Of a stretch of 64,000 bases of DNA, positions 39,721-47,259 are shown one piece after another. A program made the position numbers and the translations under genes. A model generated the notes under the pieces. The model was not told where the DNA came from, did no database searches, and worked only from the letters and a program-made list of their open reading frames with translations. This stretch comes from Antechinus flavipes (Eukaryota), in assembly GCF_016432865.1 (NCBI RefSeq), contig NC_067399.1, positions 2,852,001 through 2,916,000 of the forward strand. The letters run 5' to 3'. Positions within the stretch are counted from its first letter, which is position 1. Each line of letters starts with the position of its first letter.

Positions 39721-41900
39721 GAAGGCAGTGTGTTGCAATCATCTGCATCTGCTTGCTATGAGGGAGCCCATGAGGGAGGGCTTGCCTAAGGGGGGCTGGG
39801 CTGGGCTGGTTAGGGTGGCAGCATTCTCCCTGCTTTCCTGGCCTGGGGACAAGTGGGGACAACAGCAGAGGCGTCCAAGGGAGCAGAAGTGTCCAGTGGA
39901 AGAGAAGGGACCGTTCTGGCCCATTCGCCTTGGACAAAGGTACAGAGTGTGGGCTCTGACTATAACGGACGGGCCCAGACCAGGGACAGAGGAAGCTCTG
40001 GAAGGGAAGAGGGGAGCCCTGGAAGCAGCAGCTGAGCCCACTCCCATCCTTGCCCATGGCTGCTGAGCCACTGCCACTGCCCATTGGCAGGGAATGGGGA
40101 TGGTTTGGGGATCACTGAAGCTCTGAGCAGGCCCCTGTTGGTGCTGGACTGAGGTCTTTGTGGTCTTCAAATGGCCTTTGGGTTTCTCTGACGTATTCTG
40201 GAGGTAAAGGCCATTCCCAGTGTTGAGCAGCACCCCTAAATGCCACCTGCATCAGCAGCCTCTGCCAGCCAGCATTAGTGCCCTCTACCTCCCTGGTGCC
40301 CGATACCAGCAACGGACCGTCCAGCATGGCCAGCTCACCCTAGTGCCCCCCACCTCCCAACCATGAGCAGGAGCAGCCTCCACTCAGGGCCAGGAAGGAA
40401 GGACTGAGCCAGAGCAGCCACAGGACTCTGGATCTGGGGCGGACGGCCCTTGCTCCCGGGCACTCGGCTCCAGGAAGCAACAGCGGGCTTCAGCAAGGAC
40501 CAAGGCAGGGACTCATTTCTCTAGAAGTCACTAATAAATAATCATTTTAAAAGTCCGATAAATGAAGGCAAGGCCCTGGAGGGAGGGACCGTTCATAACT
40601 CTATCCCCTCCTCCCTGACAGTACTGGCAAACAGCCTGGAAGTTGGCGGGTTCTCAGCCATCGGACCAAATTGGCTCCATTAGTCCACGGTCAGCCAAGA
40701 TACCTCCTCACTCCCTCCAAGGAGAATAATAAGTCAATAATCACTAAACATTAAGTGCCTGCCGTACATTTACTAAGTGCTGAGGGTACAAATACAGAAA
40801 AGAAAGATGGTCCCTGCTTGGCACCTAATGGGGGAGAAGGCTGAAATGGAGGGCATGGGAGCGGGTGGGATGGGGTTGGGGTGGAGAAGGGAGGTCCAAG
40901 CCTTGTGAGAAAGCACATGTGCATCAGCCGGACCAGAAATGGGGCGCCTGGGGGGATGTCTGCCCTGTCCCCTCCCCTTCCCCACGGGCTCCCGCCAAAT
41001 GGCGAGCTGCAGCTGTAGCACGGTCATTGTCGGTGGTACTGCACGATCGATCCCGATGGCGCCCACCATGGAACCTGGCCAGCTCTAAAGTGCTGCAATG
41101 AGACAAAGGCCTTAACAAGGGGGTACGATGGCAGATGCCGCCTTCCTGGGCCTTGAAGACTTGGAGAGGAGAGCCGGGGCGGGCATCGCTGCTGCTATTT
41201 GTTTCTCGGTTCTTAAAGCAACTTCCTTAATTGATTTTGTTGTATTCCTTGTTTTGCCCAAATCCCATTTTGCAAGGCTGAGCGCACCCCCTCCCCACTG
41301 CAGAGACTGCCTCTTCCTTGGTGAGATTTATGGGCTCTGTTTGCAAATTTTGCAAACATGGATTTTCTTCTAGTTCAACAAAAATACATTTCTCTGGTTT
41401 ACATACAAATAAAGCATCTATTCAAGAGCAGGCTTATTTATAACCCTAATGATTTATGGGCCCCACAATTTTCCTACTCAAGAGGCCTTCCATCCCATCC
41501 TTCCATTGGAAGGCCAGATGGTGGCCCCATCCCTCTTCCCCCCGTTTCCCATGGAGGCTGCAGCCCGGGACTCTGCTTTGTCAGCTCTGTGCTCTGGTGG
41601 ATGTAAGAACCAGTATCGAACTGCTTGCTGCCAGCCTGTATCGTTTGGAACTTAGAGTCTCTTAATGGACTTTTAGTTTTTATGCTCAAGTTTTTACCCA
41701 TAAGACGGTCTGAGGGACAATATCTGAGTTTCCCCCAAGATCAAAGCCATCCCCAAACATCCAACTGAATTAGGAGTTTGATGGTTCCCTGATCGAACAA
41801 TGGAAGGGGGTTGGATGTAGATTGTGATCATAATTTAGAGACATCTTGATGATCTATGAGGTCACACACTGCCCTGCCCAGATTATTACCTATGTAATAG

Positions 41901-42385
41901 TGATGCGGGAAAGCTTCCTTTCTAGATTCCCACCCTCTCCTACTTAATAATGTAAATTGCCCTTTAACTCAAAAATCCTGGTCCTTTTGAATTCCAATAG
42001 AAGATCTGACCTGTTCCCAGCCCCACCCGGATATGAGCCAACTTTGGGGCTACACCCGAAAGCCCCTCGAGCTAAGTCTCCTATTATAAAAAGGCCATGC
42101 TGGGAACCCCTCTTTGCAGAGATTCCAAACATGGCTACCATGTGAGGACCCTCTGTCCACTGGACCCTCTGTCCAGTGCCCTCCTTATCTCTACCTTCGC
42201 CTATACTTTAACTTTGCTTATCTAATAATAAACCTCTTTTATCAATCTAGCTCTCTGGGCCAATAAATGCTTTTATTGGGAACTCGCGCCGCTACTAGAC
42301 CACCTTGCGCCGAATCTGTACCCCAAACCTGCCACTAGACCTTAACCCTAATTTCATTTAGGTACCCCAAAGCTAGACCTCAACA
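41901..42385 (+). repeat. 5' LTR
   Basis: TGATGCGG...CTCAACA; TATAAAAA 42085-42092; AATAAA 42227-42232 and 42262-42267; 14-bp direct repeat GGACCCTCTGTCCA x2. Confidence 0.97.
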
Positions 42386-42387
42386 TT

Positions 42388-42405
42388 TGGTTCCCTGACC
42401 GGGAA
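42388..42405 (+). other. Primer-binding site complementary to tRNA-Glu 3' end
   Basis: TGGTTCCCTGACCGGGAA, 2 nt after the LTR; complement of tRNA-Glu ...UUCCCGGUCAGGGAACCA. Confidence 0.9.
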
Positions 42406-45400
42406 CCAACACCGGAAGCTAGATAATTTGGCGATCAAACTGGATCAACCTTTTCGGGGCACTCGGAACCAATCTGGGTTTTGAGCTGTTCAGGCAGTAT
42501 TCTTCCGGGAAGAATCTGCGTTCTTTCTTTGGTCTCACTCTATCTCTAAACGTAGTGGGGAGAATATCTGTGTTCTGTCTCACCCTACTTCCATTTCAGG
42601 TGAAAAGGCTTCTTTGATCTAGACACTCCCCTGCCTCTAAAGTCTTTTCCTGGAGCAGATGCTTTGCTTGAAGAAACTCCCTTTGACTAAATCCTTTGGA
42701 GAGAGAAAGGCCCTTCCTTTGCATCTCAATGCATTTCTAATCTTTTTTTTTTTTTCCGTCACCAGATAGTCCTGCTCTCCAGCAGGAACTGTTGAGACAC
42801 GAGAGGAAGTGTCTCTTTAACACCACCCCAGACCAAAGAGTGGTCATGTGGCTGTTCTGGGGACCCCACCCCTCTCGGGGGTCCCAGGCCAGCGCTCTCT
42901 TTGCTCTGTTCTGGGGAGATAGCCGGAGAAACATAAGAGGAGCTGTGTTTGAGCCCTTCTCCCACGCCACTGTTAAATGCAATGGAGTCTCTAATGGTCA
43001 GGCTGTAGCCACGAGGAGAAAGGTCACTGAATTGGGGTGAGTTTAGAGAATGTCTCTGCCCACGGCAGCTACTCCCTGGACAGGGGTAAGCGGTCTTCCC
43101 TTCAGGTTTTGCTCTCCCAGCAAGATTTGGGGGCTTAGATGAGCTGCCCCGCCTTCAAGTTCCAGCGTGGAATCGCCAGAGGAGCCCTCGCCATTCAAGA
43201 CGCACTGCGCTGGGTAAGATGGCATCTCTTCCTCCCCCACCCTCGTTCTGGCCTTTCCTCCCCCTTCTTCCATGGAGTGGGGAGTGTAGAATTCGAGGCC
43301 TGGTTCGGACCTCTCCCATGTGGCCTGGCAACCTGCAGTTTAAATGCTCCTATCCTGTCCCCTTCTTGGGGTTACTGTACAGTGGGGAGATTGGGGACTC
43401 AATCTTAATCTTCTCAAATCTCCGGAAAGGTTGTCACCAACTTTTAAAATAGAAATTTGCTAGCAATTTGGACAAGTGGGCCGTGCCCCTTCCAGACCTC
43501 TACCTGGCTCTTAAAGCCGCAGCTTGTAGCCCTCAGGACGTGTGCTCGTCCTATACATTTAAACGGGACTCAGTTTCCCTGATTTGGTCATCCTGTGTCT
43601 GTAGAAGCCTCAGAATTACGCTTTCGCATGCTCACAAGGCTGTCTACAAAGACGGGATTTTAAACTGCTCTCGGTTTTTTTTTCTTAGCCTCAGGGCAAT
43701 ACTTAAAACTTTCTTAGCTGCTTGTGGAGAGATAACCTAGGTAATGCAGGCTAGGTCTGTCTGTCTCACACTTTCCTACCTAACCCTACAGGTGGGAACT
43801 CTTGCTACTAATTTTCTTAGTCCTAAAACCTTTTGCTCTTAGTACACTCGGTTCTGGTTCTATTCTTTTCTGGATTGGCATTCTATGTCCCTGCCAACAA
43901 AGGGTTTTTTCCTGGGCTCCAACCCTGGCCAGGTTGCAGCTTCAAGAAAGACCTTTGGAATGATGGCTGGGGAATAAAATTTTAGGTCAAGGCAAATTAA
44001 ATTCTTTGAGAAGTTACTGAGGGACTAAGATGGGATAGTTAACCTTCCTACTTAGATGGTGTGTTTTCTAGAGGTATTGGGTAATTTGTAACTGAGTTAT
44101 GCCTTAAAATTTGTCATCTCTGTTGGGAATTATAAGTTATATGAAGTTTGGTTCAATTACTTGTGAACTTCAAGATCTGTGTAATGTTAAATTTAAAACT
44201 GTCTACTTAGATAAGAAAGATAGCTGTAGAAGCTGTAAACCCTTTACTGTGATTCTTGAACTAGTCCATCCTTTATGTAGAAGATAAAATCCTTTGGGAC
44301 TGCAGCTAATATTTGCTGGGAGTTTTGAGTTCAGGTGTGATTGCATAGACCAGAAGTAAAACTGCCTTAAGTAGCTATTGTAATTTGTGGCCACACTATG
44401 GTTGCTGCTAAGCTTTTTTTACTTCCTGGGGCTAGAGTTTCTTTAAGGTTTACTTCGCCCAGGTACTTGGGGCCACTCCCACCTTGCCTTTTGAGAAATC
44501 TGGGAATCTCATGGCCCTGATTAGGCTTGGGCCTATAGCCTTTTACACTGTATGTTGATGGAAAGCAGGGCTAGGCCCCTGACTTGATGCTCAAGGAGCC
44601 CAAGGCTATAGAATATGCAGACTGTCTAGTGTTAAGAGAGGAGCTATTGAAAGGAGAACACACCCACTCCTACCACATCTCTCCTTTGCTACCTTGCCCT
44701 CAATGTTGGTGGCCCTCTTAGGAGGTTTCCACTGAGGCAAACCCACCATGTCAAGCTTCTATAACGGGGGCGGCTCAAATGCCCGGGCTAATTTGAGCTC
44801 GCGGGGAGACTCTTGGCAGTCTTGGGGGGATTTGTCGCTCATAGGACGCTGTGAGGTCGAAATCCTGTTTTTTTTTTGGCAAACGGTCCTCTGGGAGGGC
44901 CCTTTGTGACACCTTCTAGAGACGTCTAGGAAGGTTACGTTATAGAATGCGAAAGTTTTCGGGTTTTGCCATGAATTAGCTTTCTTAATTCTGGACAAGG
45001 TAAAAGACTTTTTCTCCTTCCTTATCTTGCAGTGGACACCCAAAGCCCTCCGGTCGGGCTTGGGTCGTCGTTGGGAGCTCTAAGCTCTGGCACAATTCTT
45101 TTAAGAATTGCTGCGGATTGACAAAAGGCCTTCTTTTGTCGGCTCTATCTCTAAGAGATACGAGGGAGGCTGCAAGGATTTGGAAGAATAAAAGTTTTTT
45201 ACCTGTCCACACCCCATCCCTATGGAGATTTTAAGCTTTCTCTTAATGCAGAGACAAACACTGGGCTTGAGAAAAATGCCTCATTCTCAACACCTGAACT
45301 CTGAATAGATTAGCTGAATTCCCAATCTCTCTGGACAAGTCCATCCTTTAGCTTTTTTTCTTTCTAACCCTGGGACTGATTAACACTTATGCCCTCAGGC

Positions 45401-46685
45401 AAAAACGGTGAGCCAAAACACACCCAGCACTCTTGTCTCTTTTAAAGCTGAAAGACTCAGCCTAGTGAAACCTAGGACCCACCCACCACCTCAACTTTTT
45501 CGGGGTCCAAACCTCAATGTTTCTTGCACTCTGCTGCTAACAGCTGTTGGTTTCCCTTTAACTCTAACCTGAGACACTGAGCTCTTTTCTTCTCAGAGCA
45601 ACTTCTGCCTCCTGTAAAAACATTTGGAGCTTCTTAATACAAATCTCTCCCAGACTTAGGCCTGTAGGTGCCCTGGGAACTGTCCGAGGAGACCCTAGTC
45701 TCTGTCCTGAGTTCGAGCAGGAGGAACAACGGAGAAACTGTGTCACACCACAGGGGCTGAATTGGCCCCCGGTCCTGCTCCCCGGTAGGGAATTGGGGTC
45801 TGGCCCTGTTTCCCTTTTTATCCCAGGACAGTCCCAACACCTCAGGGGCCGGTAAGCTGGGTCGGCAGTGCTGAGATACTTTGTACTCCCTCTGACCCCT
45901 TCCACCCCTCCCCCATAAGAGTGGGGAAAGTGGGGGGAAGGCTTAGGATCTTTGCTTATTGAGGAACCAACTCTTTTTAAAGAAAGGCAGCACAGTTAAA
46001 ATATTTCTAAGAGCTTAAATTGCATTCTTATCTTAATTAGACATATAGTCCTCCAGTTTTCTCCTGACTTCTTAAGTCTACACCCTGGACCAACACCGGG
46101 AGAAATTAGCTTTCCTGGAAATTAAGAGTGAAAGGGCTAAATTCGAGGCTACTTAACACTTTTTACTATAGACAAATAATCTTTTGCTCCCAGCATTTTC
46201 TCCTATTTCTCCTTGTTAGATGGGCCATCAGCATTTTACAGGCAGCCCACAGGAGGGATCTGATGCATCTCCTGCTGTCTCCATCTCCACCGTGGATGAC
46301 ACCCGGTTTTAACCTGCTCCGGAGATCTGGGCTTCAACCTTTGGACTCTTCAAAGGCCCTTCAGCCTGGAGAACATGGGACAACTGACTGGGAATGACTG
46401 ACCGGGACACACACCCCTTAGATGCACACCTGTCATCCCCAAACCCCACACCTCATGCCTCACCTCCTGGCATGAACCCCCAAATCTCTACGACCCTTGC
46501 CAGCTCGAAGCAGTTAAGAGGAGATCGGCGCCCCTTTTCCCACATGCCTTTGGAGGTGACTGCTTGAGGGGGGATGAAGAGGGGACCCCAAACTTGGAAA
46601 ATCCTGGAAGGAGAAAATCTTCAATTCTGTCTCAAGAGACTTTGCCCTATTTCTTTTTCCTTAAATGAATTTAAGTTCCAACTGC

Positions 46686-46697
46686 TTGAGGGGGGAA
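46686..46697 (+). other. Polypurine tract
   Basis: (TT)GAGGGGGGAA immediately before the 3' LTR TG. Confidence 0.9.
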
Positions 46698-47182
46698 TGA
46701 TGCGGGAAAGCTTCCTTTCTAGATTCCCACCCTCTCCTACTTAATAATGTAAATTGCCCTTTAACTCAAAAATCCTGGTCCTTTTGAATTCCAATAGAAG
46801 ATCTGACCTGTTCCCAGCCCCACCCGGATATGAGCCAACTTTGGGGCTACACCCGAAAGCCCCTCGAGCTAAGTCTCCTATTATAAAAAGGCCATGCTGG
46901 GAACCCCTCTTTGCAGAGATTCCAAACATGGCTACCATGTGAGGACCCTCTGTCCACTGGACCCTCTGTCCAGTGCCCTCCTTATCTCTACCTTCGCCTA
47001 TACTTTAACTTTGCTTATCTAATAATAAACCTCTTTTATCAATCTAGCTCTCTGGGCCAATAAATGCTTTTATTGGGAACTCGCGCCGCTACTAGACCAC
47101 CTTGCGCCGAATCTGTACCCCAAACCTGCCACTAGACCTTAACCCTAATTTCATTTAGGTACCCCAAAGCTAGACCTCAACA
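46698..47182 (+). repeat. 3' LTR
   Basis: Same sequence as the 5' LTR by eye; offset 4797. Confidence 0.97.
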
Positions 47183-47259
47183 ATAGTACCTATTACCTCT
47201 GCTCCAGACAAGACAGAGCTCAACGTGTTTGGTAACAGCAGTGGGGATTATTCCCCATC

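Follow-up and report, generated by a model that had tools for sequence, protein, structure and literature searches.

The 64,000-nucleotide stretch of Antechinus flavipes DNA that was analysed (the window) carries a provirus at positions 41901 to 47182. Its two LTRs begin with TG, end with CA and agree at all 485 of 485 positions on exact alignment, as the preliminary description had judged by eye, and a TT spacer lies between the 5' LTR and the primer binding site. The intact target-site duplication, tRNA-Glu primer site and polypurine tract of that description also stand: ATAG is found on both sides, the tract ends at 46697, and the 18/18 site matches the last 18 nucleotides at the 3' end of tRNA-Glu as encoded in this same genome, for CTC and TTC genes alike. 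Thus paired TG..CA LTRs, a 4-bp duplication, a tRNA primer site and a polypurine tract, structural features by which a non-autonomous class I ERV is recognised, are all present.

Features of the provirus and its target site (window coordinates)
Feature	Position	Strand	Remarks
Left target-site duplication, ATAG	41897..41900	+	Single ATAG in the empty allele
5' LTR, 485 bp; TATAAA at 42085; AATAAA at 42227 and 42262	41901..42385	+	
Three boxes in U5, each 10-11 nt long and antisense to tRNA-Glu (nt 6-16, 23-32 and 9-19)	42294-42304, 42307-42316, 42331-42341 (span 42294..42341)	+	
Terminal U5 unit: decayed integrase end, TT, shortened primer-site relic, 7-nt box, present integrase end	42346..42385	+	Compared with sister LTR units; homology by eye
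7-nt box in terminal U5 unit, antisense to tRNA nt 9-15	42373-42379	+	
Primer binding site, 18/18 to tRNA-Glu	42388..42405	+	
Second copy of U5 end, decayed, directly behind primer site	42416..42431	+	Read directly: 8-mer of 42370-42377, then TTTGG
Non-coding leader	42432..44705	+	42454-44006 is 75-78% like old relative L216
Leader captured from the coding ERV family primed by tRNA-Ile; it starts at a primer-site relic and stops just short of gag; predicted packaging signal	44706..44976	+	
Env tail (decayed) with 3' UTR and, at 46561-46574, an older polypurine tract; related to tRNA-Ile-primed coding family	46326..46582	+	
Polypurine tract in use	46682..46697	+	Core same as in tRNA-Ile-primed coding ERV family
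3' LTR	46698..47182	+	Same letters as 5' LTR
Right target-site duplication, ATAG	47183..47186	+	

Coding content and captured pieces of the interior

In the sense direction, no stop-free stretch of the interior exceeds 120 codons. There is no Pfam family above cut-off in 13 interior stretches, no tblastn match under E 0.03 to 52 natural stop-free stretches from gag loci, and solely a weak env-tail match (E 0.07) in tblastn with two coding families' gag, pol and env frames. Rfam finds no RNA family on the element (best E 0.05). The earlier statement that the interior lacks recognisable gag, pro, pol and env therefore holds for gag and pol, and the pol or gag matches that had been named as counter-evidence did not appear in either the Pfam or the tblastn searches. 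At the DNA level, however, a leader and a decayed env tail can be recognised.

The leader at 44706-44976 is 69% identical over 293 columns (E 5e-32) to that of a coding ERV family with a tRNA-Ile primer site, and the region of the env tail, 3' UTR and older tract is 61-69% identical to the same family (E 8e-9 and 7e-30). Neither homology is present in the 8 other coding ERV loci compared. Leader identities of 69-80% indicate that the capture is old. The old relative of the interior, L216, has a tRNA-Ile-type primer site.

Packaging signals of the gammaretrovirus type feature a pair of GACG-loop hairpins in the leader ahead of gag. Such a pair exists in the captured leader, with loops at 44845-44848 and 44921-44924 that are 76 nucleotides apart, and these are the only two stem-bearing GACG sequences of the entire interior. 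Hairpin 1 exhibits a paired change relative to the coding family, and the fold z is -3.0. The captured leader is no better kept than its neighbours (6.6% versus 4.0-6.6% mismatch among 10 old siblings).

The family and its candidate helper

There are 92 exact junctions of LTR (U5) and primer site, and 58 exact junctions of tract and U3. The copy count that had been proposed as a check thus reveals a large family. Its median interior is 4472 bp, a perfect 4-bp duplication flanks 27 of 31 pairs, and its copies are dispersed with the same interior, indicating that they were amplified as such. Among 45 paired copies, 44 lack any gag, pol or env match and the exception contains a nested opposite-strand insert, which bears out the earlier assignment to the non-autonomous class I ERVs; the family is likely to be copied in trans by helper proteins. 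The interior of the window copy is a mosaic, wherein 44831-45430 has 0 differences from L111/L112, and 45731-46630 has 0, 2 and 2 differences per 300 nucleotides from L084 where L111/L112 have 7-14. We found no description of this family, or of a U5 built from primer tRNA, in the literature; the family may already bear a name in Repbase or Dfam.

The most compelling helper candidate is the coding class I family with a tRNA-Ile(AAT) primer site. In two of its copies the LTRs are identical, the duplication is 4 bp and the pol and env frames are long; gag is broken or shortened in both of these young copies. Its pol is of the MLV type according to the best solved-structure matches. The tRNA-Ile(AAT) primer site and MLV-type pol are also characteristic of HERV-I-related ERVs, to which we presume, as a lead only, that this family may belong. 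The LTR ends, spacer, tract and duplication length of the element family are the same as those of the tRNA-Ile family. The gammaretrovirus-like helper that was postulated earlier is therefore upheld insofar as there is a class I coding candidate; its LTR differs from that of the element, and its use of another tRNA argues against the link. Nevertheless, the shared sequence features suggest that this family is the likely helper.

Alternatively, a coding ERV that shares the LTR and the tRNA-Glu primer might be the helper, having been missed or being absent from the assembly; the tRNA-Ile leader would then be just a passenger. ETn and its helper MusD do have LTR and primer in common in the account of PMC7472051, polymorphic helpers need not occur in the sequenced individual, and the captured leader is not unusually conserved. 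However, the search for a coding element with the window LTR, as had been suggested, returned none among the 91 junction loci that were fetched, another 20 perfect tRNA-Glu sites and 20 long gag loci (of 151 gag matches). Given also the agreement of ends, spacer, tract and duplication length with the tRNA-Ile family and the tRNA-Ile-type site of L216, we consider this arrangement unlikely. A third kind of particle is suggested by 12 loci where a betaretrovirus-like, tRNA-Lys-primed ERV contains 2.5 kb of the element family, which implies that other particles can meet the family RNA. One tile of the window copy is even nearest to this 12-locus group. That such a virus is the main mover of the family is nonetheless very improbable, because the duplication at L224/L037 is 6 bp rather than the 4 bp seen in 27 of 31 family pairs; duplications of 4 nt for MLV and 6 nt for MMTV are given in PMC12789967.

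Primer-site forms and the origin of U5

There are 78 sibling junctions, of which 43 have a gapped 12-nt primer site, 23 a perfect site of 18 nt, 4 a site of 24 nt, 6 a long tRNA copy and 2 some other form. Because most siblings are gapped, the 18/18 site of the window copy was probably copied anew from the tRNA when the element last replicated. On a tree of 75 rows the 18-nt label changes 15 times, and at least 4 of these changes are forced by well-supported branches. The gapped site is found in 13 of 13 of the oldest tree copies versus 21 of 50 young ones (p 1e-4), and simple 50:50 resetting does not explain this excess.

Primer read-through is recorded at 13, 24, 33, about 60 and over 70 nucleotides. 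Since tRNA-Glu is reported to be under-modified at position 58 in human cells (PMC5066629), read-through special to this tRNA was considered, but it is not supported, because tRNA-Lys sites run on too. Specifically, 31 tRNA-Lys-type sites continue to 24 nt, and 10 of 10 inspected consist of an LTR-like end followed by 35-76 nt of tRNA-Lys. A further control, biased by a fixed letter that left out long read-throughs, gives 169 sites as a lower bound. There are 0 tRNA-Ile read-through sites, but few such ERVs exist.

At least two antisense tRNA-Glu boxes occur in 0 of 1000 shuffles, and there are 265 end-primer-end units genome-wide versus 0 in the control. Apparent intermediates are also preserved: L061 and L062 carry an LTR, a tRNA piece, a new U5 end and a target duplication, and L121 carries an LTR, a whole tRNA-Glu and an inverted LTR, with the duplication AATA. 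The switch point of L121 falls at the edge of box 3, which is not beyond chance with four boxes in 117 nucleotides. U5 thus combines antisense pieces of tRNA-Glu with integrase ends that are duplicated, and these sequences suggest that the patchwork likely arose by repeated primer-tRNA capture. Neither the tRNA-derived U5 nor the captured leader appeared in the preliminary description, and both are new here.

Perhaps the boxes also function within a multipartite primer site, one that would hold tRNA-Glu by its D arm and anticodon stem; this would offset both the gapped 12-nt site and a helper favouring another tRNA. By sequence, U5 does contain regions complementary to the primer D and T arms, as in the sites of Ty1 and Ty3. 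The fold program, which treated U5 pairing apart from primer-site pairing, predicts that U5 pairs with 27-39 tRNA nucleotides at about -28 to -31 kcal/mol versus -13 to -19 for shuffled sequences; in each of 8 cases, none of 100 shuffles reached so low a value. In addition, boxes 3 and 4 are retained from the oldest subfamily to the youngest. However, sequences captured from the tRNA are complementary to it because of where they came from, and this fold result is therefore expected without any function; the non-box part of U5 is retained equally well in a low-power comparison by eye, box 1 is shorter in most siblings, and box 3 is imperfect in sister LTRs. A priming role is thus a tentative proposal that we think is more probably wrong than right. 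According to PMC4974528, Ty1 combines a 10-nt site with stretches complementary to its primer's T and D arms, and in Ty3 and gypsy a short primer site is likewise joined by stretches complementary to further arms of the tRNA (PMC4974528, PMC1635307). Those extra regions, as these sources describe them, lie downstream or at the 3' end and are shown to work, whereas the boxes predicted here lie upstream in U5.

A more far-reaching version is speculative and, in our estimation, rather doubtful. In this scenario, a marsupial ERV parasite that is still moving gave up tRNA-Ile as its primer in favour of tRNA-Glu, and its U5 grew through a primer-capture ratchet. The boxes would act as a Ty1-like multipartite site by which the element carries its own primer into a helper particle adapted to a different tRNA, and the gapped site would shield it from silencing by tRNA fragments. 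[quoted passage not shown]

Age of the insertion, proposed mechanism and related systems

The insertion site is empty in all five runs from other sequenced animals, two of them from the nearest organism. The empty allele is observed in X1, X2, X3 and X6, with the left-flank letters as a loose end, and in X5, where it is shown by a contig overhang. The single ATAG found in each of the five answers the earlier proposal to genotype the empty site, and the claims of recent insertion and polymorphism are borne out accordingly: the insertion is young and likely polymorphic in this lineage. It is the empty sites that support calling it very young, because LTR identity alone is insufficient; 0 of 485 differences is compatible with an age of up to 1.3-2.4 My. 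Moreover, identical LTRs are common in the family (8 of 27 dated siblings), so the window copy is typical rather than singular. Since the LTRs were read from the assembly alone and 0 of 485 differences dates them weakly, their identity might instead have been produced by misassembly or gene conversion in an element that is older and fixed. That possibility is hardly tenable, and is already largely refuted by the empty sites. In addition, both LTRs carry letters at 41943, 41972 and 42302 that are rare among family contigs in the same runs, and hence they are not a family average.

Collectively, we favour, with a probability of about 0.7, the following reading. The provirus is a young insertion, absent in the five other sequenced animals, and belongs to a large non-coding class I ERV family primed by tRNA-Glu. 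The coding ERV with the tRNA-Ile primer likely copies this family in trans, the family has captured the predicted packaging leader of that ERV, and the family's own U5 likely arose from repeated primer-tRNA capture. The family RNA would be packaged via the leader with the GACG hairpins, and two different family RNAs may be co-packaged and then recombine; we infer this co-packaging and helper copying from the mosaic interior and the leader held in common with the coding family. During plus-strand synthesis the primer would be copied, usually for 18 nt, which would reset a gapped site to a perfect one. Sometimes copying would go further into the tRNA, and an occasional jump back to the U5 end would add a heritable unit of end, TT, tRNA piece and end.

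Rodent VL30 and the human MER4-group internals are non-autonomous class I ERVs that, by description, also have LTRs, a primer site, a tract, a 4-bp duplication, a non-coding interior of 4-5 kb and dispersed copies. Unlike these, the present family has a second leader captured mid-interior that links it to a candidate helper, and a U5 of primer-tRNA pieces. The mouse ETn/MusD pair is similar in that the non-coding element outnumbers its helper, and the commonest primer site is mismatched with perfect sites recurring across the tree, which PMC7472051 ascribes to tRNA copying. In that account ETn is class II and shares its LTR and primer with MusD, whereas here the element is class I and both differ in the candidate helper. 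The koala PhER/recKoRV case, as described in PMC11599104, is another in which a non-coding marsupial ERV replaces the middle of an unrelated retrovirus, as in the 12 betaretrovirus chimeras, although the partner in these chimeras is a betaretrovirus-like ERV that has taken up the element's 5' portion.

Delayed second-strand transfer in HIV-1 offers a parallel for read-through, wherein reverse transcriptase passes primer position 58, with 7-54 nt of tRNA remaining at the junction of a deletion (PMC12657518, PMC8599865). The HIV-1 proviruses in these reports are all defective dead ends in body cells. In contrast, the copies here are in the germ line, hold up to a whole tRNA, and have related units inherited in LTR subfamilies. 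The family thereby provides a genomic fossil series for primer read-through, otherwise known mostly from defective HIV proviruses, that apparently became inherited LTR sequence. Other retrotransposons are reported as silent in dasyurid-type marsupials (WSINE1, PMC4408412), and the present element is a retroelement that moved recently in such a genome. Its empty and filled sites constitute a ready presence/absence marker.

A gene-less class I ERV, its family and its age

The window copy is a real, young and likely polymorphic non-autonomous class I ERV of a known kind. It stands out by the captured leader of a candidate helper, a recombinant betaretrovirus-like ERV and, above all, a U5 that is probably built from tRNA; in the article text searched (repeat libraries and supplements aside), neither this family nor a U5 of this type is described. 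The two LTRs agree at 485/485 bases, ATAG is present at both flanks, and the primer site matches the 3' end of the genome's tRNA-Glu genes at 18 of 18 positions, which bears out the preliminary description of LTRs without difference over 485 bp and of an intact target-site duplication and tRNA-Glu primer site. Genes for tRNA-Glu with a CTC or TTC anticodon occur in all five loci scanned out of the 23 genome places that match a pattern built from two window motifs. There is no long reading frame in the interior, no Pfam family was found there, and gag, pol and env gave no match of weight. The claim of an interior lacking these genes therefore stands at the level of protein matches, but a permissive alignment does show an env tail. 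The 10-nt match to the 3' end of tRNA-Glu in the 3' untranslated part is possibly due to chance; when the interior was scanned in 36 windows, one match of this kind turned up.

Coordinates of features in the window and in selected loci
Feature	Sequence	Positions
5' LTR	window	41901-42385
Primer site	window	42388-42405
Stretch shared with candidate helper	window	44706-44976
Candidate-helper family's env tail, 3' UTR and tract	window	46326-46582
10-nt tRNA-Glu match	window	46398-46407
3' LTR	window	46698-47182
LTR joined to primer tRNA	L121	229-1222
Young gammaretrovirus-like provirus	L157	419-9063
Old interior relative	L216	100-5460

An LTR search of the genome (3.19 Gb, with six contigs between 265 and 727 Mb long and another of 87 Mb) gave 2332 first-look candidates, a figure that is not a copy number. 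Towards the count of genome copies proposed earlier, exact junction patterns gave 92 LTR-primer places and 58 tract-LTR places; sequence was retrieved for 91 other LTR-primer places and nine tract places. Perfect 4-bp duplications flank 27 of the 31 delimitable LTR pairs, whose interiors have a median length of 4472 bp. LTRs lack any difference in 8 of 27 copies and lack substitutions in 10 of 27, and the window copy is among the youngest in the family. In its interior, segments close to different siblings alternate as a mosaic, as would be expected if RNAs from two loci were copied together. Retroviral protein matches are absent from 44 of 45 pairs formed by a looser rule, which indicates amplification in non-coding form and agrees with the non-autonomous ERV1-like element first proposed. 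Target preference is lopsided: at the second position beyond the right duplication 24 of 27 copies have A, and at the second position ahead of the left one 14 of 27 have T. The LTR nearest to that of the window in the genome (99.8% identical) is a solo LTR, L003, without a clean 4-bp duplication.

If marsupial DNA changes at 1.27 x 10^-9 or 2.35 x 10^-9 per year, the rates given in PMC13247528, identical LTRs allow an age of up to 2.4 or 1.3 million years, respectively. Empty sites in other animals are better evidence of age. Sequencing runs X1, X2, X3 and X5 each have one contig of single-copy depth that tracks the left flank to 41901 and then continues in non-LTR letters, and in each of X1, X2, X3 and X6 one right-flank contig runs out, across a single ATAG, into left-flank sequence. 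The empty site is present in all five runs examined, although contigs lose rare alleles. The suggestion of a recent, possibly polymorphic insertion is upheld accordingly, polymorphism being likely. Over 1002 flank bases, X1 and X2 (organism A) differ from the window at 1 and 3 positions, X3 and X5 (organism B) at 17 and 19, from which organism A would appear to be the window's species.

Candidate helper and captured leader

Twenty short gag loci have nothing in common with the window element. Among 20 longer loci with gag, nine resemble it in a stretch immediately upstream of that gene. Permissive alignment widens this stretch, which then reaches from a relic of the candidate helper's primer site almost to the start of gag, and brings in the second candidate-helper segment in the table. 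The family of these nine loci has an MLV-like pol, and in its LTR ends, spacer and tract it differs little from the window element. The gammaretrovirus-like helper proposed earlier thus has a candidate, but one primed by tRNA-Ile(AAT), not tRNA-Glu. Two young copies of this class I family, L173 and L209, are 98.7% alike. In both, the LTRs are identical, a 4-bp duplication is present and the frames of pol and env are long, but gag is either shortened or split in two. Their primer site has a one-letter insertion relative to the tRNA.

Pairs of GACG-loop hairpins are a gammaretroviral packaging signal. Two such hairpins lie in the shared leader core (fold z-score -3.0), and of the interior's five GACG motifs no others are carried on a stem; both hairpins are kept in most of 62 siblings, and hairpin 1 shows a paired change. 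Counting against the helper link, the captured leader is no better conserved than the neighbouring interior, and of 151 gag matches the search for a helper took in 20 at length. Eight other coding loci share no sequence with the interior. L216 lacks the captured leader and has a tRNA-Ile-type primer site, which fits an origin in the tRNA-Ile group. A 50-base gap follows that site, and the U5 nonetheless carries tRNA-Glu-like boxes; L216 is possibly a primer switch.

Primer read-through and a U5 probably built from tRNA

In the U5 of the window copy, three boxes, each 10-11 nt long, read antisense to tRNA-Glu within its 5' half, and two such boxes arose in 0 of 1000 shuffles. Sister LTRs point to their origin: there, U5 consists of as many as five stacked units, each an integrase end, TT and a tRNA piece; the genome-wide pattern for one unit has 265 matches, compared with none in the control. 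The last 40 bases of the window LTR look like a shortened unit. Five siblings record the capture step. L061 has 13 nt of tRNA and then a new end, and L062 has about 59 nt of the CTC tRNA followed by 27 nt of U5 end and then the target duplication. The tRNA sits at a deletion or inversion junction in L077 and L072, and in L121 a whole TTC tRNA, called as a tRNA gene by ARAGORN, lies between two inverted LTRs with the duplication AATA. In predicted folds 27-39 nt of tRNA-Glu pair with U5, but captured copies would pair in this way anyway, with or without a function.

Defective HIV proviruses likewise document read-through of the primer (PMC12657518 and PMC8599865). In this genome read-through is not special to tRNA-Glu: tRNA-Lys-primed ERVs account for 31 such places, and all ten inspected have an LTR-like end and a long tRNA copy. 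The inheritance of its products looks like the distinctive mark of this LTR lineage. ARAGORN calls tRNA genes in L121, L231, L237 and L238, in each case on a complete or almost complete copy of the primer tRNA attached to an LTR. Such fossils could inflate tRNA gene counts, and they resemble a proposed starting point of tRNA-derived SINEs.

With the window copy, 12 chimeric loci and a single junction of no clear class left out, the primer-site forms at the other 78 junctions are 43 gapped 12-nt forms, 23 perfect 18-nt forms, four of 24 nt, six long tRNA copies and two others. The gapped form is basal in a tree of 75 leaders. It occurs in 13/13 of the oldest rows versus 21/50 young rows, a contrast that simple 50:50 resetting of the site does not explain. 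The 18-nt form requires 15 changes on this tree, at least four of them forced by strong branches, with bootstrap values not settled. The 18- and 24-nt forms would be the expected product if a tRNA copy anneals to the gapped form where the two briefly match. For ETn and MusD, Cullen and Schorn report this same pattern of primer-site forms (PMC7472051).

A recombinant betaretrovirus-like ERV

Twelve betaretrovirus-like loci (L037, L039, L050, L054, L058, L071, L080, L086, L088, L106, L107 and L126, with upstream parts in L224-L228) have LTRs of their own (length about 425 bp; identity 97-99% across five pairs checked), a tRNA-Lys-type primer site and, in L224/L037, a 6-bp duplication. In place of their middle part they carry about 2.5 kb from the tRNA-Glu-primed non-coding family. 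This is a recombinant that itself spread, with a design like that of recKoRV. The provirus in L157 belongs to a different family; its LTRs, of 454 bp, are identical, the frames of gag, pol and env are long, and it sits in a solo LTR of the sister family.
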